This document shows, piece after piece, positions 1-59,553 of a stretch of 64,000 nucleotides of DNA. Source of the DNA: Actinomycetota bacterium (GTDB lineage Bacteria > Actinomycetota > Thermoleophilia > Gaiellales > Gaiellaceae); the NCBI GenBank assembly GCA_003134505.1, contig PLBK01000021.1, forward strand, positions 157,276 to 221,275, read 5' to 3'. Below the pieces are notes generated by a model that did no database searches, was not told the origin of the DNA, and saw only the letters and a program-made list of their open reading frames with translations. Position 1 is the first letter of the stretch. Each line of letters begins with the position of its first letter. The position numbers and the translations under genes are program-made.

Positions 1-2
1 CG

Positions 3-617: not shown

Positions 618-1691
618 GTGAGCCGCGGCGGCTTCGCCGCTAACGTTCAGCGCGTGGAGACGAGCACCGAGACGGTGTCGTTGACCAGCCTCGCGGTCGC
701 CGGCGGCTGTGCCGCGAAGTATGCGGCGGGGCGGCTCGAGGAGTTGCTCGCCGGGCTCGTGCCGGCGGACGCCGAGAACCTGCTCGTCGGGCTGAACCCG
801 GCCGACGACGCCGCGGTGTACCGGCTCGACGACGAGCGGGCGCTCGTGTTCACGGTCGACTTCTTCCCGCCCGTGGTCGACGATCCGGCGGACTTCGGCG
901 CGATCGCGGCGGCGAACGCTCTCAACGACGTCTTCGCCATGGGCGGCGTGCCACTGCTCGCGCTCTCCATCGCCGCCTTCCCGGAGGAGCTGCCCGTCTC
1001 GATGCTGGCAGCGATCATCGGCGCGGCCGACGAGACCGTGCGCTCGGCGGGCGCGATCCTCGCCGGCGGGCACACGATCCGGGACGACGAGCCGAAGTAC
1101 GGCCTCGCCGTCGTCGGCACCGTGCGCCCCGACGCGGTCTGGCAGAAGTCGACGGCGCGTCCCGGCGACGCGCTCTTTCTGACCAAGCCGCTCGGCACGG
1201 GCCTCGTCCTCCACGGTCACAAGCGCGGGCTCGTCGGTGACGGGGAGCGTGACGGCGCCGTCGCGTGGATGCGGATGCTGAACCGGTCGGCGGCCGACGC
1301 GGTGCGTCCGTTCGCGCCGAGCGCGGTCACCGACGTGACGGGCTTCGGCCTGCTCGGCCACGCGCACGAGACCGCGTCGCGGAGCGGCGTGAGGATCAGG
1401 ATCGAGGCCGACCGGCTCGTCGCGCTCGACGGCGCCCTCGACGTGGCGCGGGCCGGCGAGCGCACCGGCGGCGATCGTCGGAACCGCGAGTTCGTGGGCG
1501 ACCGCGCGACCGTCGCGGGCGTCGGGGACGAGCTCGTCGCGCTCGCGTTCGACCCGCAGACCTCGGGCGGGCTGCTCGCCGCCGTCTCGCCGGAGCGGGC
1601 CGCGACGCTGCAGGCGGCCTTCGACGCGGCCGGGCTGCACCTGGCCCGGATCGGCGCTGTCGAGGAAGGGGAGGGCGTTGTCCTCGCCTGA
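618..1691 (+). CDS. selD: selenide, water dikinase (selenophosphate synthetase)
   Basis: 357-aa ORF, GTG start; N-terminal SLAVAGGCAAKY loop (Cys, not Sec), DDAAVY, AGGHTI and TDVTGFGLLGH motifs typical of SelD. Confidence 0.9.
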   Translation: MSRGGFAANVQRVETSTETVSLTSLAVAGGCAAKYAAGRLEELLAGLVPADAENLLVGLNPADDAAVYRLDDERALVFTVDFFPPVVDDPADFGAIAAANALNDVFAMGGVPLLALSIAAFPEELPVSMLAAIIGAADETVRSAGAILAGGHTIRDDEPKYGLAVVGTVRPDAVWQKSTARPGDALFLTKPLGTGLVLHGHKRGLVGDGERDGAVAWMRMLNRSAADAVRPFAPSAVTDVTGFGLLGHAHETASRSGVRIRIEADRLVALDGALDVARAGERTGGDRRNREFVGDRATVAGVGDELVALAFDPQTSGGLLAAVSPERAATLQAAFDAAGLHLARIGAVEEGEGVVLA

Positions 1692-42825: not shown

Positions 42826-43508
42826 GCCGGAACAGCACGTTGAGAGGCAGAGGGGCGCTGACCGCGTCCCTCTGCCTCCTCGCCGTGGCGCCGGCGATCC
42901 CAGCCGCCGCCGGTGGGGCGGCTGCCGGCGCTCCACGGCATCTCGTCGACGGCTCCGTCCCGCGTCCCGTTCCGCCGGCCCTGCGGGCCCAGGGCGGGAC
43001 CTTGGTCATGACGACGGCTCGCCTCGGGAAGGTGAAGGACATACGTCGCCTGATCTCGACCTGTGTGCCGGGCGAACGGCTGCCAGCCGGAGAGACGGTC
43101 GTGGAACGGATCGGGGTCAACGGACGCGATCTCACCTTCCTCGCACCCGGTTCCTCGGTCGAAGGGTGCGATCGCAGCCCACGGGCAAGCCGCCGGCCGT
43201 GGTGCGGCGGCGCCGGCTGGATCCTTCGCCACGGCCGGGTCTCGGATGCTCGGCTCGACGTTTGCCTCGGCGGACGCGGCCGACTGGTCGTCGCGTTCGC
43301 CTGGATCAATCCGCTGCCGCACGCCCGCTGGATCGTCGTCGGTCAACCTGGCTTCCGCGAGGTGTACACCGTCGCGGCCGGCCTGCCGGTTCGCGTATCG
43401 ACTGTCTCCCTGATCGACCCGTCCCGCACCGTCTTCCACACGGCGCAATACGACCCGAACGGCGTGCTGCTCGCCCGCCGAACGATCATCGCCGCTGTCG
43501 CGAGCTAG
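42822..43508 (+). CDS. secreted hypothetical protein
   Basis: ATGA overlap with hydrolase fragment stop; signal peptide LTASLCLLAVAPAIPAAAG. Confidence 0.6.
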   Translation: MSRNSTLRGRGALTASLCLLAVAPAIPAAAGGAAAGAPRHLVDGSVPRPVPPALRAQGGTLVMTTARLGKVKDIRRLISTCVPGERLPAGETVVERIGVNGRDLTFLAPGSSVEGCDRSPRASRRPWCGGAGWILRHGRVSDARLDVCLGGRGRLVVAFAWINPLPHARWIVVGQPGFREVYTVAAGLPVRVSTVSLIDPSRTVFHTAQYDPNGVLLARRTIIAAVAS

Positions 43509-43885
43509 GGGAACCGCCTCGGCGCAGGCCCGTCCGGCACGAACGGGCCGAGCCTGTCCCGGTGCTCGGCGACGAGCCCGTAGACCCGTTCGATCGGCCC
43601 CTCGACACGGCCCAGCGCAGCGGCCGGCCGCTCGAAGCCGAGCGCGCGCAAGAGCTCGACGCCTGCGGCGCCCCGGGACGCTATTCGCCCGTCCGGCCGC
43701 ACGAGGTGCCAGGAAGCACGCTGGTCGTGCTCCGGGAGCGAAGCGAGGAGGGACTGGGCAGCCTCGTCCTCGAGCGGCAGGAGCGCGACGCGCCTGTCGC
43801 GGTCGAGGGTTGCGGCGGCACGCGCCGCGAAGCGGCAGAGGCGTCAACCTCCGTCGTACAGCAGCACCGGTCGTGACAGCTCCAC
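43505..43885 (-). CDS. DCC1-like (DUF393) thiol-disulfide oxidoreductase with in-frame TGA at first redox Cys: candidate selenoprotein (UxxC)
   Basis: Reads VELSRPVLLYDGG-TGA-RLCRFAARAAATLDRDRRVALLPLE.. continuous with ORF 43505..43702; family motif is YDGxCxLC; TGA at 43844-43846. Confidence 0.55.
43815..43828 (-). promoter_or_regulatory. candidate SECIS-like hairpin GCGGC-GCGU-GCCGC, 19-32 nt downstream of the UGA
   Basis: Hairpin read directly; overlapping alternative GCCGC-UUC-GCGGC at +11..+23. Confidence 0.3.
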
Positions 43886-43924
43886 CCGTCCATTCTGCCC
43901 GGCCCCCACCCCTAGACTGGCCCG

Positions 43925-44524
43925 GTGTCGAACCTGATCGATCATCACCAGTCGTGGGCGCTGGTGCTGCTCTTCCTGCTGATCGCGGTCGAGTCGGCGG
44001 GAGTGCCGCTGCCCGGCGAGACGGCGCTCGTGGCCTCCGGTGTGCTCGCGTCGCAGGGGAAGCTGAGCATCGTCGCCGTCATCGCCGTCGCCTCCGCCGG
44101 GGCGATCATCGGCGACAACGGCGGCTACTGGGTCGGCAGAAAGGGTGGCCGGAAGCTGCTCGAGCGCTGGTCGCTCGTGAACAGGCACGCGCAGAAGGTG
44201 CTGCCGCGCGCCGAGCGGATCTTCGCCAAGCACGGCGGCAAGACCGTCTTCTTCGGCCGTTTCATCGCCATCCTGCGCATCACGGCCGCCTGGATGGCGG
44301 GCATCTCGCGCATGACCTGGTGGCGCTTCCTGGTCTTCAACGCGGCCGGCGGCATCCTCTGGGCAACGCTGGTCGGGCTCGTCGCCTACTACAGCGGTCA
44401 CGCCGCGGCAACCGCCATTCAAACGTACGGCCTCTACGCCGCCGGGGCGATCGCGGTAGCGGTGGTAGCCGTCGTGCTCGGCCTGCGCTGGTGGGAGCGG
44501 CGCGTGGTCGCGAACGAGGAGTAG
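43925..44524 (+). CDS. DedA-family membrane protein
   Basis: LLIAVESAGVPLPGETALVASG and FGRFIAILR motifs. Confidence 0.85.
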   Translation: MSNLIDHHQSWALVLLFLLIAVESAGVPLPGETALVASGVLASQGKLSIVAVIAVASAGAIIGDNGGYWVGRKGGRKLLERWSLVNRHAQKVLPRAERIFAKHGGKTVFFGRFIAILRITAAWMAGISRMTWWRFLVFNAAGGILWATLVGLVAYYSGHAAATAIQTYGLYAAGAIAVAVVAVVLGLRWWERRVVANEE

Positions 44525-46320: not shown

Positions 46321-46362
46321 TAGTAGCAGCCCAGATCGACCCTCTCGCTAGGCTCAGGATTC

Positions 46363-48162
46363 GTGGCGACGCTACGTGAGCTGGTCGAGATGAGGACGGC
46401 CGTGCCGGCGGACCTGGCCCCGGACGGCTCGTCGGCGCTCGTCACCTCTGACCTCGGCGGGACGATGCAGCTCTACCTGCACGAGGACGGCGTGCGCGAC
46501 CTCGTCCAGCTCACCGACATGCCCGAGCCGGTCGGGGGCTTCTTCCTGCCGGCGAGCGGGCGCATCCTGCTCCAGATGGACGAGGGAGGGAACGAGCTCG
46601 AGCAGCTGTACGTGGTGGACCCCGAGCCGGGTGCGGCACCGCAGCCGCTCGTCGTCGAGCCCGGCTACTTCCACCGGACGCCCAGTGCGAGCCGCGATGG
46701 AAGGCTGCTCGCCTACGCGTCGAACCGCCGGAACGGCGTCGACTTCGACATCTACGTGCGCGAGCTGGATTCGGGTCAGGAGCGCCTCGTGTTCGCGCCG
46801 GGAGGCTGGTGCGACGTCGCCGGCTTCTCGCCGGACGGCTCGTTGCTCGCCGTCCTCGTGGCGACCGAGCGGAGCGGGGACAACGACCTCCATCTCGTCG
46901 ACGTGGAGAGCGGCGAGTCGTTCTCCGCCGTTCCGCACGACGACGACTCCGAGATCGGGCCGCCGGCGTGGCTGCCCGAGGGCGACGCGTTCCTGTTCGC
47001 GACCAGCGTCGGGCGGGACACGATCGCGATTGCGCGCTACGACCTCTCCGAGCGGAGCTGGCGCTACGTGATCGAGGCCGAGTGGGATCTCCGCTGCGCG
47101 ATCGACGAGGCGGGCCGAACGCTCCTCGTCGACAGGAACGCCGACGGGTATTCGCGGCTCGAGCTTCGCGACCCGCGCTCCTTCGAGCTTCGCCGTGAGG
47201 TCGAGCTTCCCGGCCGGGGCGTCGCGGCTGCCTTCGTCTTCTCGCGGGACGGCCGCCGGCTCGCCTACCACTTCACCTCGCCGCTGGTCGCCGGCGACGT
47301 CTGGATCTGCGACACCGGGACGGGCGCGAGCGAGCGGCTGACCGAGAGCCCGAGCGGGGTGTCCGCGGGAGAGCTCGTCGAGCCGGAGCTCCACCGCTTC
47401 GCCTCGTTCGACGGCGAGTCGGTGCCCGTGTTCCTGTACCGCCCGCCCGGCGAGGGCCCGTTTCCTGTCGTGATCATGATCCACGGCGGTCCCGAGGCGC
47501 AGCTCCGGCCGATCTTCAACCCGCTCGCCCAGTACTTCGTCACCAACGGCTATGCGGTGGCCGCCCCGAACGTGCGCGGGTCGACGGGCTACGGGAAGCG
47601 CTACGAGCACCTGGACGACGTCCGCAAGCGGCTCGACTCGGTGCGCGACCTCGTCGCGCTGCACGACTGGCTGGGCACCGTCGACCGGGTCGATGCCGGG
47701 CGGGCGATCCTCTACGGCGGCTCCTACGGCGGCTACATGGTGCTCGCGGGCCTCGCCTTCCATCCGGAGCGCTGGGCGGCGGGGATCGACATCGTCGGAG
47801 TCTCGAGCCTGGTCACCTTCCTCGAGCACACCGCTCCCTGGCGGCGCGCCTTCCGGGAGCGCGAGTACGGCTCGCTCGAGCGCGACCGCGAGTTCCTGCT
47901 CGACGTGTCGCCGCTCACGCACGTCGATCGGATCCGCGTGCCGCTGTTCATCATCCACGGGGCGAACGACCCACGCGTTCCGGTCGGCGAGGCGAGGCAG
48001 ATCCACAGCTCGCTGGCCGAGCGTGGCATCCCCTGCGAGCTGCTCGTGTACGACGACGAGGGGCACGGCCTCAAGCGGCTCCCGAACCGTCTGGACGCCT
48101 ACCCGCGCGCGATCGCGTTCCTCGAGCGCGCGTGCTGGCCGGGGCGCGGTAACGTGCCTTGA
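46363..48162 (+). CDS. S9-family serine peptidase (prolyl oligopeptidase/acylaminoacyl peptidase type)
   Basis: N-terminal beta-propeller region; GGSYGGYM nucleophile elbow; HGANDPRV and DDEGHG catalytic Asp/His contexts. Confidence 0.9.
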   Translation: MATLRELVEMRTAVPADLAPDGSSALVTSDLGGTMQLYLHEDGVRDLVQLTDMPEPVGGFFLPASGRILLQMDEGGNELEQLYVVDPEPGAAPQPLVVEPGYFHRTPSASRDGRLLAYASNRRNGVDFDIYVRELDSGQERLVFAPGGWCDVAGFSPDGSLLAVLVATERSGDNDLHLVDVESGESFSAVPHDDDSEIGPPAWLPEGDAFLFATSVGRDTIAIARYDLSERSWRYVIEAEWDLRCAIDEAGRTLLVDRNADGYSRLELRDPRSFELRREVELPGRGVAAAFVFSRDGRRLAYHFTSPLVAGDVWICDTGTGASERLTESPSGVSAGELVEPELHRFASFDGESVPVFLYRPPGEGPFPVVIMIHGGPEAQLRPIFNPLAQYFVTNGYAVAAPNVRGSTGYGKRYEHLDDVRKRLDSVRDLVALHDWLGTVDRVDAGRAILYGGSYGGYMVLAGLAFHPERWAAGIDIVGVSSLVTFLEHTAPWRRAFREREYGSLERDREFLLDVSPLTHVDRIRVPLFIIHGANDPRVPVGEARQIHSSLAERGIPCELLVYDDEGHGLKRLPNRLDAYPRAIAFLERACWPGRGNVP

Positions 48163-48497
48163 TGGACGCCGATCGGGCACGCGAGCTCCTCGCCGCAGAG
48201 CGTCGACGGATCGAGCACGAGCTTGCCGGCCTCGGACACGAGGACGACAGCGAGCCGGCCGACGAGTACGACGCGGCGAACCTGGCCTCCGACCTGTACC
48301 AGGACGAGCTCGACGAGGGCCGTGCAGACGACCTGCGTGAGCAACTCGCCGCCGTCGCGCGGGCCGAGGAGCGGCTCGCCGCCGGGACCTACGGCCTCTC
48401 GATCGAAAGCGGCCTGCCGATTCCCGACGAACGTCTCGAGGCGGTCCCGACCGCCGAGCTGACGGCGGAAGAGGAGCGCGCGCGGTCCGAGCTCTGA
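48162..48497 (+). CDS. DksA/TraR-like protein lacking the C4 zinc-finger cysteines
   Basis: Coiled-coil region then GTYGLSIESGLPIPDERLEAVP where family members have GxCxxCGxxI..RL.A.P; TGATG overlap with peptidase stop. Confidence 0.55.
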   Translation: MDADRARELLAAERRRIEHELAGLGHEDDSEPADEYDAANLASDLYQDELDEGRADDLREQLAAVARAEERLAAGTYGLSIESGLPIPDERLEAVPTAELTAEEERARSEL

Positions 48498-48552
48498 CCG
48501 ATGCTGTGGTTCCACGCTCCCCTTTTCCCGCGGTGCGAGATGCCCGTGTAGG

Positions 48553-48987
48553 TCAGCCGCCCCGCCTCGTGAGCGTCCCGTCTTCGTCGACTGTGACATG
48601 GGTGATGGGAAGCGGGAAGCGAGCCTGGGCTGTTTCGCCACTGCCCTCCTCCAGCCAGCCTGCCTGGTCGTCGGGACGAGTGGCGATGATGATCTCGTCG
48701 GCAGGGAACGTGCGAAGGGCATCTTCGATCGCTCTCACAGGGTCGGAGTCGCCCACTTGCGCTTCGACGTTCGTGGTGGGCGTCGCTGCGGCTGTCTTGT
48801 CTGCGATCGAAGCCGCTTCGGCGTGGGCGTCGTCCTCGGCGTTCGTCAGCCAGTCGAGGCGTGAAATCTCCGAGGCCGGTGCGACGACCAGCATCTCGGC
48901 GTCATCGCCTCCAACGCTGCGCACGAGATCGCGCAGCGTCTTGTCGGCGACACGGGTTGTGACCACAACAAGCAGACGGCGGGGCAT
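48553..48987 (-). CDS. hypothetical protein (possibly USP-like alpha/beta fold)
   Basis: ATG 48987 preceded by caggagaagg RBS. Confidence 0.55.
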   Translation of the reverse strand: MPRRLLVVVTTRVADKTLRDLVRSVGGDDAEMLVVAPASEISRLDWLTNAEDDAHAEAASIADKTAAATPTTNVEAQVGDSDPVRAIEDALRTFPADEIIIATRPDDQAGWLEEGSGETAQARFPLPITHVTVDEDGTLTRRGG

Positions 48988-49099
48988 GTCCTTCTCCTGA
49001 CGACGAATCCATCGTGGACGATCGGTGCGTGCGACGAGCGCGGTCGGATGGTCGGTCTGGGCGGGAGCTTGCTGCCTCCCGCCCAGGAACGCCACCTTG

Positions 49100-49264
49100 C
49101 TAACGCGTCTTGGCCTTCACGCGCTTCTTCGCGTCTTTGAGCGTGGTCTTCGCCTTGACCTTGGCCTGGTCCAGGTGGCCCGCTACCTCGAGGCGCTTGT
49201 TGCCCGTCGCTGCCCCGGTAACCACCTTCGCCCTGCCCTTTGCTTTGTCGAGTTTTGCGCCCAT
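49100..49264 (-). CDS. CsbD-family stress protein (54 aa, below ORF-track cutoff)
   Basis: MGAKLDKAKGRAKVVTGAATGNKRLEVAGHLDQAKVKAKTTLKDAKKRVKAKTR; strong RBS ggaaggaagg 5 nt upstream. Confidence 0.6.
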   Translation of the reverse strand: MGAKLDKAKGRAKVVTGAATGNKRLEVAGHLDQAKVKAKTTLKDAKKRVKAKTR

Positions 49265-49295
49265 ATCAGCCTTCCTTCCAGTTGAGTGGTAAGTC

Positions 49296-49373
49296 CTAGC
49301 GTCTGCTGAAGCGGAACCCGCCGAAGACGAAAAGCACGAGCACGATGATCAAGATCAGCATCCAGAGCGACAT
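49296..49373 (-). CDS. 25-aa hydrophobic peptide
   Basis: MSLWMLILIIVLVLFVFGGFRFSRR; AAGAGG RBS 7 nt upstream; sits between two small stress/membrane genes on the same strand. Confidence 0.35.
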   Translation of the reverse strand: MSLWMLILIIVLVLFVFGGFRFSRR

Positions 49374-49412
49374 CTGTGGCCTCTTTTCTTCGTTTTCCGG
49401 GATAGCAGGCGA

Positions 49413-49634
49413 TCAGCGCTCGACAACGGTCGTGTTGCCGCCACCGCTTCGGCTGGCGCCGCCGAAGCCGCCCCAGCTCGACCAGAAGACGATCGAGAGC
49501 ACGAGTCCTACGGCACCGACCACCATCAGGATGATCCCCACGGTGTGGATGCTGAAACCCGTCGCGGTCGTGCTGACCGCCCAGGCCATGATCGCACCAG
49601 CTGCGATCATGAGAAGACTGACTGCTGTACCCAT
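49413..49634 (-). CDS. small two-TM membrane protein with Gly-rich tail
   Basis: 73 aa, two hydrophobic helices. Confidence 0.6.
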   Translation of the reverse strand: MGTAVSLLMIAAGAIMAWAVSTTATGFSIHTVGIILMVVGAVGLVLSIVFWSSWGGFGGASRSGGGNTTVVER

Positions 49635-49935
49635 CAGTGCCCCCTTTGATTTGGTGTTTTGTCGCCCGGCCTAGAAACACAACCAGCCGGGATTGCCCGG
49701 CGGATGCATTCATCTCGTGCTTCGAACGGGCTCATCTATCCGTCCTCCTGGTCAAATGGACGGCGGCGGAGAATCTGCCGACCGGCTCCGACCGAAAGGG
49801 CTGACGGACGGACTGCGGGAGTCACGGTTGTTCGGACTCCAAACTGCAAGCGCTTCGTGATAAACGCTACCAGCCTAAGGTAGCACAAGCGTACCGGCCA
49901 CGCATCGGGCGAAAGCCTGACCGCGTTGCCTCAAA

Positions 49936-50550
49936 CTACGCCCCGACCGTTGATGGAGGTGCCTGCGTCGGCAGCGGGGGCAGCAGCAGAAGGTGGCTCT
50001 CGACGATCGCTTCGGCGACGTTGACGAGCTTGCGCCCGTTGTGTTGTGAGTAGGAGCGGAGCATCTCGAACGCTCGTTCTTGGTTGATCGCGTGCCGTGC
50101 CATCAGAATCCCCTTCGCCTGCTCGATCACGGCTCGGCGTCCGAACGCCCCTTCGAGGTTGTGGAACTCCGCGAAGCGGCGCAGGACGATGTCGATCGCA
50201 CTCTCGAGTTGCTCCGAGTCGGTGTCGGTGATGTAGGCGAAGACACCGCGCCTGGCAGCCTCGTGCACGTAGGCCTGGTCGCGCGCTTCGAGCAGCGTGA
50301 TCACGGGGCAGGCGGCCTCGTGGACGATCTTCGAGATCAGCTCGAGCGCGTGCTCCGAGCTCGCGCCGAGACCGACGAGCGCGACGTCGGGCCGCACCTC
50401 GCGGGTGACCTGACCAACCTCCGATACCTCGAGCTGGCGCGCGATCACCTCATGTCCGAGGCCGGCGACGATCAACGCGACCCGCTCCAGCCTGTCAGGC
50501 CGCTCGTTCGCGATCAGAACACGGAGATGACCTACCGGGTCGCTAGGCAT
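49936..50550 (-). CDS. ANTAR-domain response-regulator-like RNA-binding antiterminator
   Basis: REC-like N-terminus (RVLIANERPD..DVALVGL) and C-terminal ANTAR (RAVIEQAKGILMARHAINQERAFEMLRSYSQHNGRKLVNVAEAIV). Confidence 0.85.
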   Translation of the reverse strand: MPSDPVGHLRVLIANERPDRLERVALIVAGLGHEVIARQLEVSEVGQVTREVRPDVALVGLGASSEHALELISKIVHEAACPVITLLEARDQAYVHEAARRGVFAYITDTDSEQLESAIDIVLRRFAEFHNLEGAFGRRAVIEQAKGILMARHAINQERAFEMLRSYSQHNGRKLVNVAEAIVESHLLLLPPLPTQAPPSTVGA

Positions 50551-50810
50551 AGCTCCTCCACGAAGAGGCTATCGCCTCTATCGTCTGTGCTGGGTAAAAC
50601 CCGTGGAGTCGCAAACCCTCGTCAACCACTCAGCTCAGTGTGTTCCCTGATGTGGGGTCGGCGTCGTTGCGCAACTGTGGTCGTACGAGGCGCGCGAGTC
50701 GGACACTCATGTCCGCTGTGCGCTCAGTAGACCGCCGCACCGGTCTTGTTCCCTAGCTGGATTCAGCGTTACGTGGGAACGGAGCGTGGCGGGGTCGGAG
50801 AAGGAGCGTT

Positions 50811-51149
50811 ATGTCCCTGTATATGTCGACCTTCGAGTACAAGCCCGAGGTCTGGTCCGAGCTGATCAGCAACCCGGAGAACCGCACCGAGACCGTCAGC
50901 CGTCTGCTCGAGAGCGCAGGCTGCAAGCTGAAGGGCCTCTGGTACGCGTTCGGCAAGAGTGACGGTTTCGCCCTGATCGAGGCGCCGAACAACGTGACCA
51001 GCGCCAGCCTGATGATCGCGATCAGCGCCAGCGGAGCATTCAGCAAGTTCGAGACGACCGTTCTGATGACGCAGGACGAGCTCCTCAAGGCGCTCGAGCA
51101 GGCGCAGGACGTCGAGTACGTGGCGCCCGGCGCGGCCGTTCACGCCTAA
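50811..51149 (+). CDS. GYD-domain protein
   Basis: MSLYMSTFEYKPE..GLWYAFGKSDGFALIEAPNN pattern of the GYD family. Confidence 0.8.
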   Translation: MSLYMSTFEYKPEVWSELISNPENRTETVSRLLESAGCKLKGLWYAFGKSDGFALIEAPNNVTSASLMIAISASGAFSKFETTVLMTQDELLKALEQAQDVEYVAPGAAVHA

Positions 51150-51262
51150 CAGTTGACCGCCGACGGGAGTCGGGCCGACCAGGCCCGGCTCCCGTCCTGG
51201 CACCGGTTCGAGCGTTCGACTCGTGCCGGATGATCGTTTCCTTGAAAAGAAGGAGAAGCACG

Positions 51263-51415
51263 ATGGAGTGCAACCGATGTCATGGCAACACACCGATCCT
51301 CGTGAACGAGAGCGATCTCTGCTGGGCGTGCGCGTTTCCGCGCCCGTTTGACCTCGCTGCCCAACAGCACGCCCTCGCCGACGAGCGGCAGGCGGTTGTA
51401 GCGAAGGCAGCGTGA
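51263..51415 (+). CDS. 50-aa zinc-ribbon-like peptide
   Basis: MECNRCHG..DLCWAC (two CxxC pairs); AAGGAG RBS 8 nt upstream of ATG 51263. Confidence 0.4.
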   Translation: MECNRCHGNTPILVNESDLCWACAFPRPFDLAAQQHALADERQAVVAKAA

Positions 51416-51514
51416 TCCTCCAGGATCGCGAGGCGTTCTCAAAGGACCTCAGGTCAGGACGCCAGGGCAGCGTTCCGGGCGCAGAAAGGGCCTAGCTACC
51501 AGGTCTGTTCGAGA

Positions 51515-51556
51515 CGGGAGCGACGGGACTCGAACCCGCGACCTCCGGCGTGACAG
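51515..51556 (-). pseudogene. orphan 3' half of tRNA-Asp(GUC): anticodon loop to discriminator base, no 5' half
   Basis: Minus strand reads CTGTCAC-GCCGG-AGGTC-GCGGG-TTCGAGT-CCCGT-CGCTCCC-G; upstream sequence cannot pair as anticodon stem, D arm or acceptor. Confidence 0.7.
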
Positions 51557-52156
51557 GTGAGCGTCGGCCTTTGCCGTTAGTCGCCGTTGTTCGCCGATCG
51601 GGCTTGTTTCGGCGGATCTGGCGGTCGCGGATGGGGTCGGGTTCGCCGTTGGTTGCCACCGCTGCGTTCCAGCTTGGTTCCACAGTGCGCTCGCCCGGCC
51701 TGGGTCTTTCGTCACACCTGATCGGGCGGGCTAGTGCGGTGATGGTCGAGCAGCCTTCGGGGACGTTCCCCCTGGTCTTCACTGATGATTGAGGGGGCGA
51801 CCGGTTTCTGCACGAGCTCGGTCAGGGCGCCTAACAGGATGCCCTCGAGAGCATCGGCGGATCGTCCGCGAGTCGTTCGCCTGCCACGGTGGCTACCAGG
51901 TCACTACGACGGCGACGCCGCTACACCGATCCGGAGTACGTTGGTACGTCGCGCGGATCTACTGCGTGAACATGAACCGCGAGTCCGCCGAGTACTTCCA
52001 GGTGTACGGCATCGCCGCGTAGCACGGCTTGTTGATGAATTGTTTCGACAATTTCGACGCGACGAACTGCCTGTAAAACATGGGGCTTCAACGTCTTGAC
52101 CAACAAGTGGCAGGCGGCACGCGCAATTTAGGACCCACTCGTGCGGTGAGATACAA

Positions 52157-52545
52157 TTCTCGCGCTATGGGCGATCGCTCATCAGGAGACCCTTCTGTAC
52201 GCCGCTGCCTGCTGGTGAGGCGATGGCGAACGTGCTTGCGACGTTCGCGAAGTTCGAGCGCCGCCTGATTTCTCTCGTCGCTGTGTCGCAGTTCCAGCGA
52301 AGTGCGACGTGCGCTCACCCACCTCGGCTTCGGTCGCCGCAGGCGCTAGCCGCGTCTGAGTGGTGGCAGCCCGTGAACTCGATGGGTCGAGCATCAGGTC
52401 GGCCAGCGGACGCGGGACGCGCTGGCGGTGAAGCGATCGCAGGGAGTGAGGCTCGGGCGTTCTGTGACCCTGCCGCCGAATATCGCGCGTCGAGTCCAGC
52501 GGGAGCGAGCGGGGCGTCGCAGCGTTGTCTGTCAAGGTGCTAACT
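52157..52545 (+). pseudogene. decayed small serine recombinase (resolvase/invertase) gene
   Basis: FSRYGRSL..TPLPAGEAMANVLATFAKFERRLIS resembles the resolvase core; a second frame near 52470-52545 gives LPPNIARRVQRERAG.. (HTH region); frameshifted, no catalytic N-terminus. Confidence 0.45.
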
Positions 52546-53586
52546 GTTTGGTGTGGGGATGGGGCCGGTCGCGGGCAGGGTGATGTCGAGGGGTTTGTAG
52601 TCGGGGAGGGCTTTGGCGAGGAGACCGTCGCGGTGGAGTTGGCCTCCGTTGATGTAGGTGCAGATGTAGGTCCAGCCGTTGGTTCCTGGGTCGCAGTGGA
52701 TGTTGCTGTTGGCGAGGTTGGCGGCGAGGATGCTGGTTGCTTGCTGGACTGTGAAGCCGGGGTTGGCGGCGGGAGATTCGTTCGTGTGCGGGGGGACGCG
52801 GCGCGCAGGTGGGAGCGCGGGCCAGGTTGAGTGGGTGGGTGCGGGTGGCGGTTCGAGGTAGGTGCGGAGGTCGCAGTTGATGCCGATGGCGGTGGCGTCG
52901 TTGGTGGCTGCTGCTGCGTACCCGCTGGCTAGGCCGCGGTCTGTTTGGGTGAGGTTGAGTGGTTGCTGTTTGAGCACGGCTTGGTGCAGGGTGTAGAGAC
53001 TGAACTCGTAGTCGAGGAACTGGCTGAAGAAGCGCGACGCGCCGAGGCCGCCGCTTCGGGGCGGGATGTTGGCGACGGGGACGAGGGCGGCCTCGAAGCG
53101 TTGTTCGATGGGGAGAAGCCGGGCGGTCTGCTGGAGGCTAGGAAGTCGCGGGAGGGCGACGATGGCTTGTGCGCGCCGCAGGCAGGCTCTGTCAGCGGCA
53201 GCGACGAACTCGCTCAGGGTCGCGAACGGTGGCTCGGAGTTGACCTCGGTGACGGTGCCGTCACGGTTCGTTCGTACCTCGATCGCGCCTGCCTCCCCGG
53301 AGTTGAGACCGGTGGGGCCGTAGGCGAGGAACGTGCAGCGGACGATCGACGGGTAGTTCGCCTCGGTGGCGCAACGCAGGTCACGCCGGAGGCGCGGGTA
53401 CTCCTGCCATACGAGGCGGCGTGCCTGGGCGCGCGTCAACGGTGTCGAGTGGCCTGTGGCGATCAACTGGCCGGGCGTGAGCATCGGGTCGGCCTTGATC
53501 GCGCTGTGCGAAGACCGAAGCCAGCTGTGTTGGACAACCCAGACGACGACCAAGCAGGCGACGATCACTCCAACGAGACCACGCAT
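52540..53586 (-). CDS. membrane-anchored hypothetical exoprotein
   Basis: ATG 53586 gives MRGLVGVIVACLVVVWVV anchor; no family recognised. Confidence 0.55.
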   Translation of the reverse strand: MRGLVGVIVACLVVVWVVQHSWLRSSHSAIKADPMLTPGQLIATGHSTPLTRAQARRLVWQEYPRLRRDLRCATEANYPSIVRCTFLAYGPTGLNSGEAGAIEVRTNRDGTVTEVNSEPPFATLSEFVAAADRACLRRAQAIVALPRLPSLQQTARLLPIEQRFEAALVPVANIPPRSGGLGASRFFSQFLDYEFSLYTLHQAVLKQQPLNLTQTDRGLASGYAAAATNDATAIGINCDLRTYLEPPPAPTHSTWPALPPARRVPPHTNESPAANPGFTVQQATSILAANLANSNIHCDPGTNGWTYICTYINGGQLHRDGLLAKALPDYKPLDITLPATGPIPTPNS

Positions 53587-53781
53587 CACTAGAGAGATGA
53601 TCGGCACCAGCGCGCGGCAACCCAAGCCGCGAAGCTCGCTCGTCCGGGTGGTGAAGTGCCTGTTCAAGACTCCAGGGGTCTGCTCGCGAGGCAGCCGCCA
53701 CGGCTGAAACCAAATGCGCTGCGCTCAACCGAGGGACGCGGCAGCCTCGTTGAGATCACCCTCACTTCCGATAACGACTAC

Positions 53782-54291
53782 ATGCGGGGACTCGTCGCAC
53801 TCGCCGTCGTGGTAGTGGTCGGCGGCTTCGTGTGGAAGCACCTGCCAGGCGGAGGCGTGATCGCCGTGGGTAGTGGCCCGCGCCCCGCCAACTGGAACCA
53901 GGTCAACCACGGCAGCCTGCCGCCGATCACACCCCCCACACTTGGGTCGAATCACGCTATCTCGTCAATCGTGGCCGGGAACTACGAAGACAGCTACCGG
54001 CGAGGGCCGACCGCAGCTCCCAACTCCGTTGACTGTCCATCAGTGTCCAGCCCTTCTCTCGACACGGAACGAGCAAGCTGGGGCGCGACCGGCTCGTTCT
54101 ACGACTGCTCGATCACACTGGCCGACGGGTCCCAGACAACGGAGTGCTGGTTCCAATCCGGCAGCAACTACCGAATGGCCTTCATCGTCCCCCCGGCTGC
54201 ACCCGGGCCGATCCAGCCACCGATCAAGGGGTCGTGCGAGTTCTTCGCGCAGACGACGAGCCGCGTCGACTTCACCGAAGTAGTCCCGTAG
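53782..54291 (+). CDS. membrane-anchored hypothetical exoprotein
   Basis: MRGLVALAVVVVVGGFVW anchor; Cys-containing ectodomain; followed by family-B hairpin. Confidence 0.55.
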   Translation: MRGLVALAVVVVVGGFVWKHLPGGGVIAVGSGPRPANWNQVNHGSLPPITPPTLGSNHAISSIVAGNYEDSYRRGPTAAPNSVDCPSVSSPSLDTERASWGATGSFYDCSITLADGSQTTECWFQSGSNYRMAFIVPPAAPGPIQPPIKGSCEFFAQTTSRVDFTEVVP

Positions 54292-54355
54292 CCGCCTGGC
54301 CGTTTCTTCGGCAGCCGTCGCCCGGATACATACGCTGAAAGCCACGAACGCGCGT

Positions 54356-54380
54356 GTCGCGTTTTGCTGGAAAAAGCGAC
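54356..54380. repeat. family-B hairpin, copy a (gtcgcgtttt-gctgg-aaaaagcgac)
   Basis: 65 nt after the stop at 54291. Confidence 0.75.
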
Positions 54381-54472
54381 CGCCAGGATCGCGTCCCAGC
54401 GTCGGAGGAGAGTAGGCTGTTGAGCGTGCGCCAACCTCTCGCTTAGTTGGGGCGTCTAACTGGGTGACGGCG

Positions 54473-55681
54473 ATGAAGTGGTTGGTTCGAGTCACCCTCG
54501 TTGCCGCACTCGCGTGTTGTGCGGTGGGGGCCGGTTACGCCTCGTCTGCGGAGCGGAGTATTTGGGTCGTGACCGATCTGCTCCGGCAGGCAAGGCACGA
54601 CTTCCCTAACTACGCGGGGATCAGTCTCGTTGGGATGACCGCGACCGATCAAGTGTTGTGGACGGCGTATCCGGCGGTGAACGACGCTCACAGCGTCCGC
54701 GATGTGTTCCGCTGGGAGAACGGGACGATCCGCAACCTCGGCGCTCTGCCTGCGGGCATGAACACGCCCGCGTTCAACAACAACAGTGAGATTGCAGGCA
54801 CCGACTTCAACCCGCACAGCATCCCGATACCCGTCGCCTCCTTCGCTCGATTCCCCCGTGTCCATGCCTTCCTGTGGGAGCCGGGAAAGGTGACGATGCT
54901 AAGCACGCTCGGGCGAGGCTTCGGTTCCGTCGTTGGCTTGAACGACCGAGGGCAGGTGGCGGAGACGGGGATGGGGAGCGTGTCTCGGCGGTTTCGGGGG
55001 CTGCTTTGGCAAGACGGGAAAGTGACCGACCTCGGGACGCTTGGCGGCAAGAGCAGTTTCGCGACCGCGATCAGCGCCAGTGGTCAGGTGATCGGGAATA
55101 GCTGGCTTCCGAACGGAACCTCGCACGGGTTCCTGTGGCAGGACGGCAGGATGCGCGACCTCGGCGGTATCCCCGGCGCGACCTACGGCCCCGCCGCAAT
55201 CAACGACCACAGCCAGATCGTCGGCACGTGGACGAAGGCGAAAGACCGGGCGCCGGAGCGGGCGTTCCTGTGGCAGAACGGCAAGATCATCGACCTCGGC
55301 GCACCCGCAGGCCAGTTGATCGACACGATCACGATCAACAACCGTGGGCAGGTGATCTGGACGAGCCAGAACGGCTCCGGCCCCGTCATGCATGGCTTCC
55401 TTTGGCAGCGCGGGAAGTTGACCAACCTCGGCACGCTCAACGGCATGTCTATCGCCGTGTCTGCGATCAACGACCGAGGCCAGATCGTCGGCACCAACGC
55501 CCCCGCTAGCAAGCCCTTCAACAAGCAACACGCCTTCATCTGGCAGAACGGCACCATGACGCAGCTGCCTGGCCCGGCGATCAAGGCGTACACGATGGAC
55601 ATCGACCAGACCGGCACCCACATTGTCCTCGGCGGCCCCTGCTGCCAACGCCAACTCCTCCTCTGGACACGGCGCGGCTGA
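54473..55681 (+). CDS. secreted HAF-family extracellular repeat protein
   Basis: Signal peptide; about 8 repeats of the form (H)(A/G)FLWQ(D/N)GxxxDLGTLGG. Confidence 0.7.
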   Translation: MKWLVRVTLVAALACCAVGAGYASSAERSIWVVTDLLRQARHDFPNYAGISLVGMTATDQVLWTAYPAVNDAHSVRDVFRWENGTIRNLGALPAGMNTPAFNNNSEIAGTDFNPHSIPIPVASFARFPRVHAFLWEPGKVTMLSTLGRGFGSVVGLNDRGQVAETGMGSVSRRFRGLLWQDGKVTDLGTLGGKSSFATAISASGQVIGNSWLPNGTSHGFLWQDGRMRDLGGIPGATYGPAAINDHSQIVGTWTKAKDRAPERAFLWQNGKIIDLGAPAGQLIDTITINNRGQVIWTSQNGSGPVMHGFLWQRGKLTNLGTLNGMSIAVSAINDRGQIVGTNAPASKPFNKQHAFIWQNGTMTQLPGPAIKAYTMDIDQTGTHIVLGGPCCQRQLLLWTRRG

Positions 55682-55907
55682 CGTAAGTGTTTGACGGCAC
55701 GGTTGGCGTAACGGCACTCTTTGTGGAGTGGGACTCTTGCATTGGCTCGCAGAGAGACACCGCGCCAAGAAGGCGGAGCATGAAGCCATCGAGCAAGCGG
55801 CGGAAGAGATGCACCGGGCTGGCGAGGAGGAGGAGCCGCGCGAAGGTATCGGTGCCAGCGTCTACCCCTGGATGAAGGGCGATGCTTAGGCTGCGAGCGG
55901 CAAGGCT

Positions 55908-55943
55908 CGCGCTCGGGCGAGTGCCTGACTGAGGCGGGCGAGC
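55908..55943 (+). repeat. family-A repeat core, copy 5
   Basis: cgcgctcgggcgagtgcctgactgaggcgggcgagc, preceded by hairpin gcgagc-ggcaag-gctcgc. Confidence 0.85.
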
Positions 55944-55944
55944 A

Positions 55945-55970
55945 TGTCGTGGAATGGTGGAGAGGCGACA
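55945..55970. repeat. family-B hairpin, copy e (diverged), abutting repeat copy 5
   Basis: tgtcgtggaatggtggagaggcgaca. Confidence 0.6.
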
Positions 55971-56001
55971 GCCCCGCCGGGCTTGTGTCACCATCAAAGT
56001 G

Positions 56002-57219
56002 ATGAAGCGCGTTGCCTTGTTGGCGTGCGCTGCCGCGTTCGGTCTGGCTGGTCTTGCCTCGGCTGCGGCGCAGCGCCCGGCACTCCTGGCGGTGGTTGGG
56101 ACGAAAGCCTCAGTGGCGGTTGTCAGACTTGACCCGCTGACGCTTCGTCGCGTCGGTTCGGCAAGGGTGTCCCTTGGTTCGTTTGGCGGAGCGTGGGGAC
56201 GCTCGCCGGACGGTTCTCGTCTCGCGCTGGCAACTGGTGCGGCGGTGAGATTCGTTGATGCTCGGCGGCTGCGACTAACGGGCACGTTCGGGCTCGGGAA
56301 GGGCAGCCAGGTCAATGTGATTGCTTGGGTTGCCCCGCGCACTGTGATCGCTGTGTACGACGACACCTTCGTGGTCGGTATCGATCCTGTCTCCCTGCAC
56401 GCTCTCTGGCGCAAGAGCCTGCCCACGATCCCCTCCGACGATCTTGTCCGGTCAGCCTCCGGGCTCGTGTTCATCTTCCCTCCGCTCGACGGGAGCGTCG
56501 GCCCGACAACGCTGACCACTCTCAACCAGAACGGTCGGATGCGCTCAGTCGTCCTCACGAAGGTGCAGACCGGCGCACAAGAGGACGCCTCCGGCTCATC
56601 GAACCTGACCGGCTCGCAAGGCTCCCTGACCGTCGATCCCGCGAGCAACACGGCATACGTCTACGCGGTGGGTGACCCGGTCGCACAAGTCGATTTGGGT
56701 TCGCTCACGGTCGGCTACCACACGCTGCCCAAGCGCACGCTTGCCTCCACCCAGTACGGGATCACCGGCCCCGAGCCGCTCATCGTCTGGCTCGGAAGTG
56801 GACTGATCGCCATCACCGGCAGAAGCGGCAGCACTGCCACCGACTCCCAAGGCATCCAGCACCCCGTCGAGACGCCAGCCGGACTGAGCATCCTCAACAC
56901 CGGCACCTGGACGACCCGCTCAGTCGATCAAACCTCAAGCGCAGTAATCCAGACGGGCGGCCTCCTCCTTGCCTACAGCCAACTGTTCGGCTACTCCGGT
57001 CGAATCACGTTCACGGGCGACGGGCTATCCGCATACGGGCTCGACGGAACCTCCAAGTACCACCTGTTCGGACAAGACCCAATCTCAGACGTGCAGGCGG
57101 CGAACGGGCTCGCCTACATCGGGGGCAACGTCGTCAACGTCATCACGGTCGCCTCAGGAAAGACCGTCAAGGCTCGCGTTCCCGGACTTCTGAAACTCCT
57201 GATCGACCCTCCCCTGTAG
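56002..57219 (+). CDS. secreted hypothetical protein (beta-rich, propeller-like?)
   Basis: Signal peptide MKRVALLACAAAFGLAGLASAAA. Confidence 0.6.
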   Translation: MKRVALLACAAAFGLAGLASAAAQRPALLAVVGTKASVAVVRLDPLTLRRVGSARVSLGSFGGAWGRSPDGSRLALATGAAVRFVDARRLRLTGTFGLGKGSQVNVIAWVAPRTVIAVYDDTFVVGIDPVSLHALWRKSLPTIPSDDLVRSASGLVFIFPPLDGSVGPTTLTTLNQNGRMRSVVLTKVQTGAQEDASGSSNLTGSQGSLTVDPASNTAYVYAVGDPVAQVDLGSLTVGYHTLPKRTLASTQYGITGPEPLIVWLGSGLIAITGRSGSTATDSQGIQHPVETPAGLSILNTGTWTTRSVDQTSSAVIQTGGLLLAYSQLFGYSGRITFTGDGLSAYGLDGTSKYHLFGQDPISDVQAANGLAYIGGNVVNVITVASGKTVKARVPGLLKLLIDPPL

Positions 57220-57224
57220 CGCAC

Positions 57225-57252
57225 CTGTCGCTCTTTGCTGGAAGGGCGACAG
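57225..57252. repeat. family-B hairpin, copy b (ctgtcgctctt-tgctgg-aagggcgacag)
   Basis: 5 nt after the stop at 57219, shared by convergent genes. Confidence 0.75.
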
Positions 57253-57254
57253 GC

Positions 57255-58169
57255 TTACTGGATGTAGCCGGTCTTGCGTAGGAAGTGTTTGAGCGCGTGG
57301 ATGTAGGCGACCGGGTTACGCGGAGGCTGGTCGAAGGGGCCGGGAACGAGGTCGCCTCTTCGTAGTGCTTGGGCGAGCGTGCGGTCAACCGCTCTGCTCT
57401 GGCCGAGCATGTACTTGTCCGCAGCCCAGGCAGCCAAGATGTAGCGCGCCTCGCCGCGAGGGCGCTTGCGGCGATCATCGAGGTATAGACGCCAGAGAGA
57501 AACGGCGTCCTTCTGGATCAGCTTTGGGTACCGCCGCGTGATGTCGTTGAATGTGCCGTGGTCATATGACCAGAGCCGGATCGGCTCGACAACCCCGACG
57601 TAGGCCGTGAGGGCCGCGAAGCGGTCGTCCTCGGAAACGAACTCCAGGCGTCCATCCCCGTTGAGGTCACGGAGAGAGGGAGCGGCGCGATTTCCACCCC
57701 AAAAGTGATTGGTGGGAACGTAGGTGTTGCGTGCAGCGTCGAACCGGTAGATACGCGACCAATAGCAGCACTGGGTTCCGCCCCAGAAGAGCAGGAGACT
57801 GACCTCGGGCTCACCGTCACCGTCAAGATCGCGCACAACGAACCACCCAGGTAAGCCCCCCAACTCCACTCTGTAGACACGCGTTCCGGCCACCTCCTTC
57901 GGCACGGTTTCTGCGAAGATTTGCCTTCCGCCACGCGAGATGCGGATGCGCGGGTTCGCAGGCGTGCCGATGCCGTAGCTGTCCACCAAGTTCTCGTACA
58001 AGAGGACGGCCCGTGTCGAACCCGCATGGGCGACCCTCCGGGCTGGAACGACGCGCACCGCGGTCGAGCCGGATGCCCGAACCGTGGTCGCAGCAACTGG
58101 AGCCATGACCGCGACCATCGCTGCCGCCCCGACGGCAGCAAGACCAAGGCCGTGATACTTGCGGCGCAC
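57255..58169 (-). CDS. secreted protein with FG-GAP/VCBS-like Ca-binding loops
   Basis: Signal peptide; VRDLDGDGEPEV and LRDLNGDGRLEF motifs; GTG 58169 chosen. Confidence 0.55.
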   Translation of the reverse strand: MRRKYHGLGLAAVGAAAMVAVMAPVAATTVRASGSTAVRVVPARRVAHAGSTRAVLLYENLVDSYGIGTPANPRIRISRGGRQIFAETVPKEVAGTRVYRVELGGLPGWFVVRDLDGDGEPEVSLLLFWGGTQCCYWSRIYRFDAARNTYVPTNHFWGGNRAAPSLRDLNGDGRLEFVSEDDRFAALTAYVGVVEPIRLWSYDHGTFNDITRRYPKLIQKDAVSLWRLYLDDRRKRPRGEARYILAAWAADKYMLGQSRAVDRTLAQALRRGDLVPGPFDQPPRNPVAYIHALKHFLRKTGYIQ

Positions 58170-58256
58170 GGAACAGGTGTACCGCCTTCCGCTGCTCGCC
58201 GCAATCCCTCGGGTGGGTCGGCCCCCGTCGCACTTTGCGGGAACCACGACAGATGG

Positions 58257-58976
58257 TCAGTGTGTGAGAGTTTGGGTTGTGCCGTTGGTGTAGTGGACGG
58301 TGATTGACCTGAGGGCTTGGTTGCGTCCTTCGTAGGCCCAGACGTTGTTCTTGACCGGCACGGTTGTCTCTTTGCCTTCGGCGATGAAGGAGACGGCGGT
58401 GATGCCGTCTTGAGCAATGCCGTAGCTGAGTGGGGGGGTAGCGCCGGGGCCGTTCACCACACGATCAAACGTCGCGACGGTGGTCGGCTCAGATTGGGTG
58501 AGCGGCTTGCCGCAGGATTCGAGTTCAAGCTTGGCCTGGTTGGTTACCACGATGCAGAGCGCGTTCGTGGTTGTCGTGATGACGTAGATTCGCGCGCTGC
58601 CTGGAAGCTGACCAACGAGGCGAGAGGTGTCAAAGAGGAAGGGGCTTCCAGGCAGTGGATGAGCCTCAAGCCAAGTGACGACTGTCGGGTCGAGCACGTC
58701 TTGCGCTGTTTGCGCGTGGTTGGCGGTGGCGATCCCAGCGAACGGCCCCCATCCCCGTGTTCCGGCGACAGCCGCCCCGCCGACCACGAGGACAACAAGA
58801 ACGACGGCGGCGATCAGGAGGCGTCTACGGTCGCGCAGGCCCGCTCCCAGCCTTCCGGCAGGCCGTCTCGCCGTGACGCCTGCGTCCCGGAGCACGCTTT
58901 GCCAGTCGGGCTGAGCGACCGGGGCCGGGAACAGGCGGGCAAGCTCGCTTCTGAGCAACGACTCCGTTTCGATCAT
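58257..58976 (-). CDS. single-pass membrane protein, anti-sigma-factor-like (module A)
   Basis: ATGA overlap with the ECF sigma gene; cytoplasmic DWQSVLRDAG motif, one TM helix, extracytoplasmic domain. Confidence 0.6.
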   Translation of the reverse strand: MIETESLLRSELARLFPAPVAQPDWQSVLRDAGVTARRPAGRLGAGLRDRRRLLIAAVVLVVLVVGGAAVAGTRGWGPFAGIATANHAQTAQDVLDPTVVTWLEAHPLPGSPFLFDTSRLVGQLPGSARIYVITTTTNALCIVVTNQAKLELESCGKPLTQSEPTTVATFDRVVNGPGATPPLSYGIAQDGITAVSFIAEGKETTVPVKNNVWAYEGRNQALRSITVHYTNGTTQTLTH

Positions 58977-59467
58977 CTCTCCACCTCCTGTTGTTTCAAG
59001 GCGCGCAGGCGCGCGTGAGCGGCGCTCAACGTTGCCGACACCGTTCCCACCTCGATCCCCAGCACCGAGGCGATGCCCTGGTAGTCAAGATCAGCGAAGT
59101 AGCGCAGGAACACGACCGTGCGCTGCCGCTCCGGTAGCGATGCGAGCCAGGGGCGTAGAGCCAGCGGATCGTCGCTGCTGCCGTTCACCGACGGCGTATC
59201 CTCGCACGACTCTGGCGTCCACTCATCGTCGGTCGTAGCGGAGCGCCGACGGTCACGGGCTGCGTTGACGACGATCTGCCACACCCATGCCTCCACGGGT
59301 GCTTCGCGGCGGTACGACGCTCGTGACCGGATCGCCCGCACAAACGCGTCGTGAACCGCGTCAGCGCCCAACGCCTCGTCGCCCGCGATCACCGAAGCAA
59401 CCCGCAGGAACCGCTCGTAGCCGTCCCGGTACACCGCTTCGAGTTCGTCAAGTTCCACAGTCACCAA
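58973..59467 (-). CDS. ECF-type RNA polymerase sigma-70 factor (module A)
   Basis: Region 2 DAVHDAFVRAIRS..VEAWVWQIVVNAARD; region 4 LPERQRTVVFLRYFADLDYQGIASVLGIEVGTVSATLSAAHARL. Confidence 0.85.
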   Translation of the reverse strand: MVTVELDELEAVYRDGYERFLRVASVIAGDEALGADAVHDAFVRAIRSRASYRREAPVEAWVWQIVVNAARDRRRSATTDDEWTPESCEDTPSVNGSSDDPLALRPWLASLPERQRTVVFLRYFADLDYQGIASVLGIEVGTVSATLSAAHARLRALKQQEVER

Positions 59468-59553
59468 CAGTCTCTACCTACAAGACTGCATGGACTGCCT
59501 GGTTTGTTTAGAGCGGTTGATTGTCTACGCCGTCCGGGCAGCGAGCTACGGCT

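Follow-up and report, generated by a model that had tools for sequence, protein, structure and literature searches.

A gene on the minus strand of a 64,000-nucleotide (nt) stretch of DNA from an Actinomycetota bacterium of the family Gaiellaceae (assembly GCA_003134505.1, contig PLBK01000021.1, positions 157,276 to 221,275; the whole stretch is called the window below) encodes a DCC1-like protein and contains an in-frame TGA at codon 14. Comparison with orthologous sequences makes it very probable that this TGA is a genuine selenocysteine (Sec) codon and that the gene is a real selenoprotein gene. The codon is shared by a diverse set of orthologs, and the DNA that follows it forms a conserved hairpin that is a candidate Sec insertion sequence (SECIS). 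The coordinates of all features are collected in Table 1.

Results

Reading frame and family of the gene

The minus strand from 43885 to 43505 constitutes a single frame of 126 codons, which reads VELSRPVLLYDGG-TGA-RLCRFAARAAATLDRDRRVALLPLEDE...VPDGPAPRRFP-TAG, with the TGA at 43846-43844 as the sole internal stop. Reading of the minus-strand sequence thereby confirmed the frame given by an initial annotation made from the sequence alone, and its observation that the mechanical list of open reading frames (ORFs) holds only a 65-residue piece at this locus (43505..43702) was also correct. In favor of the GTG start, the corresponding GTG of one orthologous locus (L001) is immediately preceded by an in-frame TAG, and cysteine (Cys) form orthologs begin with MELERPVLLYDGGC.

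When U is read as C, the translation matches the Pfam family PF04134 (DCC1-like, formerly DUF393) with 53.2 bits at a cut-off of 27.8 (E=8.6e-14), residues 8-112 being aligned with profile positions 1-110 of 113; NCBIfam models gave no match to the protein. The TGA coincides with the first Cys of the DxxCxxC motif, which is Y-D-G-G-U-R-L-C in the window, and the D, the second C and the following R of this motif fall in invariant columns of the family alignment. The Cys encoded by codon 17 is present in 33/33 Sec-form and 11/11 Cys-form sequences of the clade and is invariant in an alignment of 66 proteins. Both the family match and the ortholog alignment thus agree with the initial proposal that the TGA replaces the first redox Cys of a DCC/DUF393 protein.

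Codon 14 in orthologous genes

A protein search for relatives returned two length classes, full-length proteins of ~126 residues that carry YDGxCRxCRF, and fragments of 91-102 residues that span only the C-terminal three quarters. The fragments have no Pfam match and make up about a quarter of the closest database clusters. The NCBI-sourced copies of the protein are truncated, and the internal starts chosen by gene callers vary among orthologs; that automated callers would truncate such a gene had been predicted, and the public calls of 91-102 residues for these loci bear this out. When the contigs that carry two of these fragment genes were inspected, each showed an in-frame TGA at the position of the window's TGA, after VELxRPVLLYDG.

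A metagenome scan yielded 73 loci, and the motif was seen in 66 among all loci. The in-frame stop at codon 14 is always TGA (TAA or TAG in none), and it occurs in 34 distinct orthologous sequences from independent metagenome contigs; the remaining motif-bearing loci have TGC at the homologous codon, and two very close relatives have TGT at the Sec position. The alignment of orthologs that the initial annotation had suggested as a check therefore gave TGA in one large set and Cys codons in the others. The set of Sec forms is diverse, with pairwise identities of 43-99% (median 58%), and in all Sec-type genes the frame is intact to the common C-terminus PDGPAPRRFP. The carriers are high-G+C actinobacterial contigs from soil and wood metagenomes.

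The 13 codons upstream of the UGA keep their amino acids (RPVLLYD), whereas their third positions drift freely: Arg is encoded by CGG, CGC, CGA or CGT, and Pro and Val by four codons each. Because amino acids are conserved while synonymous sites drift, these codons must be translated in this frame. It should be noted that TGA is also the ordinary terminator of many other genes in the window, e.g., of the S9 peptidase gene at 46327-48162, and therefore the genetic code is standard. A nonsense mutation confined to one strain, an error of sequencing and a reassigned code are thus all excluded by the pattern among orthologs. The first of these had been named at the outset as a possible refutation, and it is ruled out by the presence of TGA at the same codon in 34 distinct sequences.

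Two side observations concern the set of loci. A sub-clade (L033, L035-L041, L043, L047, L058 and L073) that consists mostly of Sec forms has an internal deletion and is ~19 codons shorter, with 103 codons compared with 122 in full-length forms if counting begins nine codons ahead of the Sec/Cys codon; the UxxC motif, the hairpin and the C-terminal PDGPAPRR[FY]P are all retained in this sub-clade. In a metagenome-assembled genome (CAVXVO010000004.1; L005, 10001-10380), a Cys-form DCC gene loses its frame soon after the CxxC motif, which represents either an assembly indel or a pseudogene.

A conserved hairpin downstream of the TGA

The DNA directly 3' of the TGA is unusually conserved among orthologs. 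With the U of UGA numbered 1, nt 19-24 (GCGGCG) can pair with nt 30-35 (CGYCGY) across the Sec forms, and the loop is usually CGUGY; the hairpin begins 16 nt and its loop 21 nt after the UGA. All six pairs are formed in 32/34 Sec sequences and five of the six in the other two, compared with six of six in 0/28 Cys sequences of the scan. This 6-bp register is paired in 99% of alignment cells, its only changes being from G-C to G-U, and RNAalifold independently picks the +19..+35 hairpin. The mean hairpin energy is -7.1 kcal/mol in Sec forms vs +2.0 kcal/mol in Cys forms.

At the five codons beneath the hairpin (Ala-Ala-Arg-Val/Ala-Val/Ala), the third positions of the Sec forms have a mean entropy of 0.15 bit, the lowest of any five-codon stretch of the gene (gene mean 1.20); for the Cys forms of this clade the value is 1.27 bit. 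Both Ala residues are encoded by GCG in 64/64 cases, whereas GCG accounts for 46% of the Ala codons elsewhere in the genes, and Cys forms use GCC, GCA, GCT and GCG at the same two positions. Both wobble positions of the hairpin's 3' arm are likewise invariant in Sec forms only. Thus, it is the nucleotide sequence and not the protein that is constrained, and this only together with an upstream TGA, which is the signature expected of a bacterial SECIS. In searches of the bSECISearch type, the loop of a bacterial SECIS lies 16-37 nt after the UGA, comprises 3-14 nt and has a G within its first two bases, and the upper stem has at least 4 bp; the +19..+35 hairpin, with its 6-bp stem and 5-nt CGUGY loop, agrees with these values.

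The initial annotation had pointed to a hairpin GCGGC-GCGU-GCCGC, and this sequence is indeed present, but the conserved register is the one with 6 bp and a 5-nt loop. The register with 5 bp and a 4-nt loop is paired in 94% of cells and broken in L017, L018, L024 and L030, and the 6-bp register was preferred. The lack of any conserved structure downstream of the TGA, which would have spoken against a selenoprotein, did not materialize, since a hairpin specific to the Sec forms is conserved.

Within the window, the bare hairpin motif occurs five times compared with 1.5 occurrences expected, and the combination of TGA and hairpin motif at fixed spacing occurs once compared with 0.03 expected. 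The signal within the window alone is thus barely above chance, and the case rests on the comparison of orthologs. On that comparison, the specific hairpin at +19..+35 is probably the functional SECIS, a claim that we make with less confidence than that of the Sec codon itself.

Evidence against the proposal and alternative explanations

Several results weigh against Sec insertion at this codon or against the +19..+35 hairpin as its signal. Folded as a single sequence, the region has z = +0.57, no better than shuffles in this DNA of 70% G+C, and the hairpin is part of the minimum-energy fold of 7/34 free RNAs, or of 12/34 when the first 15 nt are masked. Compensatory double substitutions were not found in the hairpin, all changes being of the G-C to G-U type, and therefore covariation cannot confirm it; in covariation tests of three hairpin registers, shuffles reached the observed values, so that these tests neither support nor refute the structure. 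None of the SECIS families in Rfam matched, either at the gathering threshold or at E up to 10, which says little because Rfam, to our knowledge, covers few bacterial SECIS types.

The weakest part of the case concerns the Sec machinery: searches for selA, selB and tRNA-Sec found none of them in the 64-kb window, in the 2.9 kb upstream and ~8 kb downstream of it, or in ~460 kb of related loci. For tRNA-Sec, ARAGORN was applied to the window and 47 loci and Rfam was used at gathering and at E up to 10. For selA and selB, Pfam was applied to 30 ORFs of the window, and all fetched DNA was searched with regular expressions for the pyridoxal phosphate motif of SelA and for the G1 motif of translational GTPases, of which SelB is one; the G1 matches were BipA-like only. 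The window does contain selD, as had been stated, and its assignment is genuine (TIGR00476, 337 bits at a cut-off of 125; NF002098, 300 bits at a cut-off of 299); it lies 42 kb from the DCC selenoprotein gene. However, selD alone is no proof of Sec decoding, because actinobacteria with an 'orphan SelD' are known (PMC5029168). The Sec reading is kept, although selD is the only such gene found, because the comparative signature is hard to explain otherwise.

Two further observations were made around selD. ARAGORN reported a 94-nt 'tRNA-Ser (cga)' inside the gene (window 1436-1529, plus strand), repeated in an identical Logan contig (L080); it is almost certainly spurious, as Rfam gives no tRNA there at E up to 10, and it is not a tRNA-Sec. 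A gene for a 307-residue protein that matches no Pfam or NCBIfam model ends 7 nt before selD (window 3-611, plus strand; full length in L080, 1989-2912) and may be co-transcribed with it; the protein carries FATPKFCTSRTCGP, which resembles a thioredoxin-type CxxxxC. A screen of the window for a second gene with an in-frame TGA gave nothing convincing.

Of the alternatives to the proposed arrangement, the one that survives best accepts Sec insertion and assigns the role of the SECIS to a different hairpin, UGCCGC-UUC/UGG-GCGGCG at +10..+24, or to a switch between the two hairpins, which are mutually exclusive as they share the GCGGCG arm. This upstream hairpin is paired in 96% of cells, it is the minimum-energy fold in 15/34 sequences vs 7/34 for the downstream hairpin (a further point against the latter), and the mean pair probabilities are 0.42 and 0.15, respectively; in addition, the frozen GCG GCG codons are common to both. 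However, its closing pair is broken in 8/33 sequences, an Arg codon in its 5' arm varies freely at the wobble base (entropy 1.08 bit), a G is missing from its 3-nt UUC loop, and RNAalifold selects the downstream hairpin instead. The downstream hairpin is favored because the wobble bases of its 3' arm are frozen in Sec forms only, because the G-U in its loop, at +26/+27, lies close to G23-U24 in the apical loop of the Escherichia coli fdhF SECIS, and because, in the geometry of the E. coli SECIS, a stem with its base only 6 nt 3' of the UGA would be located within the ribosome while the UGA occupies the A site. The upstream hairpin or a two-hairpin switch is accordingly regarded as unlikely.

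Far less probable is that the UGA is decoded but not as Sec, i.e., that it is subject to readthrough or low-level suppression or has been reassigned to Trp, Gly or Cys. UGA has recently been described as reassigned to Trp in some Actinomycetota of the family Eggerthellaceae (PMC13462651), and the failure to find selA, selB and selC in the searched DNA would also fit. Against this, TGA terminates many well-supported genes of the window, a single codon is affected, homologs have Cys at this position in every case and neither Trp nor Gly in any, selD is present, and a simple reassignment would give no role to a hairpin that is specific to TGA forms. Least probable of all is a true stop in a pseudogene or split gene that yields at most an internally started downstream fragment: gene callers do annotate 91-102-residue fragments at such loci, and Sec machinery beyond selD was not seen, but a stop that is always TGA, always at the same codon, across 34 sequences with a median identity of 58%, behind 13 codons conserved at the amino-acid level, speaks against it, as do internal starts that differ among orthologs and a window frame without ATG, GTG or TTG until codon 62, so that a protein started internally would lack the redox motif along with half of the fold.

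Sec and Cys forms in the family

In a neighbor-joining tree, the Sec forms are confined to the PDGPAPRRFP clade, where they are interleaved with Cys forms, as is seen in other Sec/Cys families, and the codon is TGC throughout the more distant CGFCRW clade. The Cys forms closest to the protein of the window are P0001 (74% identity) and P0004 (65%). Both have TGT at the Sec position together with an intact hairpin. TGT is one substitution away from TGA and is an unusual codon in this G+C-rich setting. The sequences suggest that the TGT forms with an intact hairpin are recent Sec-to-Cys conversions that have retained a fossil SECIS. In P0011, a Cys form with TGC, the 3' arm of the hairpin has been lost.

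Predicted fold and proposed mechanism

An AlphaFold model was built for P0001 from an alignment of 66 sequences. The model is confident, with a predicted local distance difference test score (pLDDT) of 91.6, and shows the thioredoxin/glutaredoxin order b1-a1-b2-a2-b3-b4-a3, followed by extra C-terminal helices. Cys14 stands immediately before the helix formed by residues 15-27, which places the motif at the N-terminus of helix 1. A Foldseek search with this model gave weak matches (best E 0.017, none <=0.001), and all of the top matches have a thioredoxin fold (N-terminal domains of glutathione S-transferases, NrdH, Grx2 and BC3987); by sequence, no relative with a solved structure was found in the PDB. 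Because residue 14 directly precedes helix 1 in this thioredoxin-like model, Sec would occupy the position of the attacking Cys in the CxxC redox center.

The gene would thus encode a 126-residue thioredoxin-fold protein of the DCC1-like (DUF393/YuxK) type in which the nucleophilic first Cys is replaced by Sec, in the context D-G-G-U-R-L-C. In the mechanism that we infer, which comprises Sec insertion itself, the binding of the hairpin by SelB, and the redox chemistry and its substrate, the UGA at codon 14 would undergo co-translational recoding. For this, the short G+C-rich hairpin in the coding sequence would recruit SelB with its bound Sec-tRNA(Sec), and the SelD of the same genome would supply selenophosphate. 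A cycle between selenolate/thiol and selenenylsulfide has been proposed for thioredoxin, glutaredoxin and DsbA-like proteins in their Sec forms. By analogy, the likely chemistry of the mature protein is the formation of a selenenylsulfide between the selenolate of U14 and C17, and the protein would cycle between this and the selenolate/thiol state.

Gene neighborhood

The divergent gene next to the DCC gene encodes a DedA/VTT-domain membrane protein (Table 1). This adjacency is kept in the sub-clade of the window for Sec and Cys forms alike and is absent at 17 other TGA loci; it was rejected as a functional link because it is restricted to one sub-clade and makes no difference between Cys and Sec forms. 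In the intergenic region between the two starts (43886-43924), GGGCAGAATG is conserved across the sub-clade, with CCAGTCTAGGG further upstream. There is no Shine-Dalgarno motif before the GTG start of the DCC gene, and a promoter and terminator scan gave nothing, with no full sigma-70 consensus promoter. As a -10-like hexamer, CAGAAT, lies 6 nt before the GTG and a Shine-Dalgarno motif is missing, the sequence suggests a leaderless transcript, in which the UGA would be only 39 nt from the 5' end.

The wider surroundings are heterogeneous. Between ~23500 and 43500, the window contains a serine recombinase gene (resolvase, 26339-27910) and many ORFs without a Pfam match, and its G+C content is 62-68% over ~30-41 kb, compared with 70-73% before ~22 kb. 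The distance from the DCC gene to the metallo-beta-lactamase/MFS/BNR genes is ~20 kb in the window vs ~4 kb in a syntenic Cys-form locus (L081), and judging from these sequences the extra DNA is probably an integrated mobile element. The stretch from 48000 to 64000, together with positions 1-10000 of a contig that extends past the end of the window (L085), has a G+C content of ~64%, repeated ECF-sigma genes, two transposases (Transposase_mut and DDE_Tnp_1), a SIR2_2-domain protein and many ORFs without a family match, and it looks like a variable or accessory region. The flanks of the window (2.9 kb upstream and ~8 kb downstream) contain only transposases, sigma factors and a SIR2-like gene.

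Table 1. Features of the window discussed in the text, and orthologous loci with a TGT codon
Feature	Position	Strand	Description
DCC1-like selenoprotein coding sequence (predicted)	43505..43885	-	126 codons including one UGA; GTG start 43883-43885; TAG stop 43505-43507
UGA, codon 14, read as Sec codon	43844..43846	-	first position of the UxxC motif (YDGG-U-RLC-RF)
TGC, codon 17, second (resolving) Cys of UxxC	43835..43837	-	from ortholog comparison
Candidate SECIS hairpin	43812..43828	-	nt +19..+35; 6-bp stem, 5-nt loop
Parts of the candidate SECIS	5' arm 43828-43823; loop 43822-43818; 3' arm 43817-43812	-	GCGGCG; CGUGC; CGCCGC (window sequence)
Alternative hairpin UGCCGC-UUC-GCGGCG	43823..43837	-	nt +10..+24; shares the GCGGCG arm with the candidate SECIS; mutually exclusive with it
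selD, selenophosphate synthetase, Cys form	618..1691	+	motif AGGCAAK; TIGR00476, NF002098
DedA/VTT-domain membrane protein gene	43925..44524	+	PF09335, E=6.7e-21; divergent, 39 bp from the selenoprotein start
CAGAAT, -10-like hexamer	43892..43897	-	6 nt upstream of the GTG start
Cys-form orthologs with TGT and the full GCGGCG-N5-CGYCGC hairpin	L082 769-1149; L083 206-586; L084 289-669		65-74% identity to the window protein

Discussion

The proposed Sec-DCC protein resembles the Sec-containing thioredoxin, glutaredoxin and DsbA-like proteins and other UxxC selenoproteins with a thioredoxin fold (Table 1 of PMC13188914) in that it would be a small thioredoxin-fold protein with Sec as the first residue of a UxxC motif at the N-terminus of helix 1, in that abundant Cys homologs are interleaved with the Sec forms, and in that the SECIS would lie in the coding sequence just after the UGA. 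It differs from the known UxxC selenoproteins in belonging to PF04134, in its D-x-x-U-x-x-C signature, its extra C-terminal helices and its invariant PDGPAPRRFP tail, and in its origin from actinobacterial soil and wood contigs rather than from Deltaproteobacteria, Clostridia or marine samples. With the Cys-form DCC1-like proteins (PF04134/DUF393, including YuxK of Bacillus and DCC1 of Arabidopsis), it shares the same domain from end to end and the same DxxCxxC position, and Cys orthologs reach 74% identity; unlike in these, the first Cys position is encoded by a UGA that is followed by a hairpin in the coding sequence. Arabidopsis DCC1 acts as a mitochondrial thioredoxin.

The candidate SECIS has a counterpart in that of E. 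coli fdhF, which is also a short stem-loop in the coding sequence at a fixed distance after the UGA with a G-U in the apical loop, located at +23/+24 in fdhF and at +26/+27 in the hairpin of the window. In contrast to the fdhF element, the hairpin of the window is much shorter (17 nt), neither a bulged U nor a lower helix was detected in it, and it is a putative SelB site.

No literature that links DUF393, DCC, YuxK or PF04134 to selenocysteine was found. The family is absent from the inventory of 119 families and subfamilies of May 2026 (PMC13188914), from the family table of 2022 (PMC9312934), from the GOS survey and from the new families of deep-Sep, and it is not in the main text of BSepDB. 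Sec-DCC thus appears to be a new selenoprotein family, albeit one of a familiar kind (thioredoxin fold, UxxC). With moderate confidence we go one step further and propose that it is an uncatalogued Sec family whose Sec form prevails across a clade of uncultured high-G+C soil Actinomycetota and that it uses a minimal SECIS of 17 nt. If this is true, Sec decoding would be common in a lineage in which it has hardly been described, public databases would systematically hold truncated versions of the protein, and reversions from Sec to Cys of very recent date would be preserved in the TGT forms with their fossil hairpin.

New Sec families continue to be discovered regularly, and Sec-DCC stands out among them by being abundant in soil actinobacterial contigs and systematically mis-annotated, and by combining a compact SECIS with natural Sec/Cys switches. 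The finding would expose a systematic annotation error, in the form of the truncated database entries. The compact SECIS, with its natural Sec/Cys pairs and fossil hairpins, would be usable for studies of SelB recognition in high-G+C bacteria. The exchange of Cys for Sec would also identify the catalytic nucleophile of the family as the first Cys of the DCC motif. Finally, the bacterial selenoproteome would gain a family from soil Actinomycetota, and both this habitat and this phylum are poorly represented in selenoprotein surveys.

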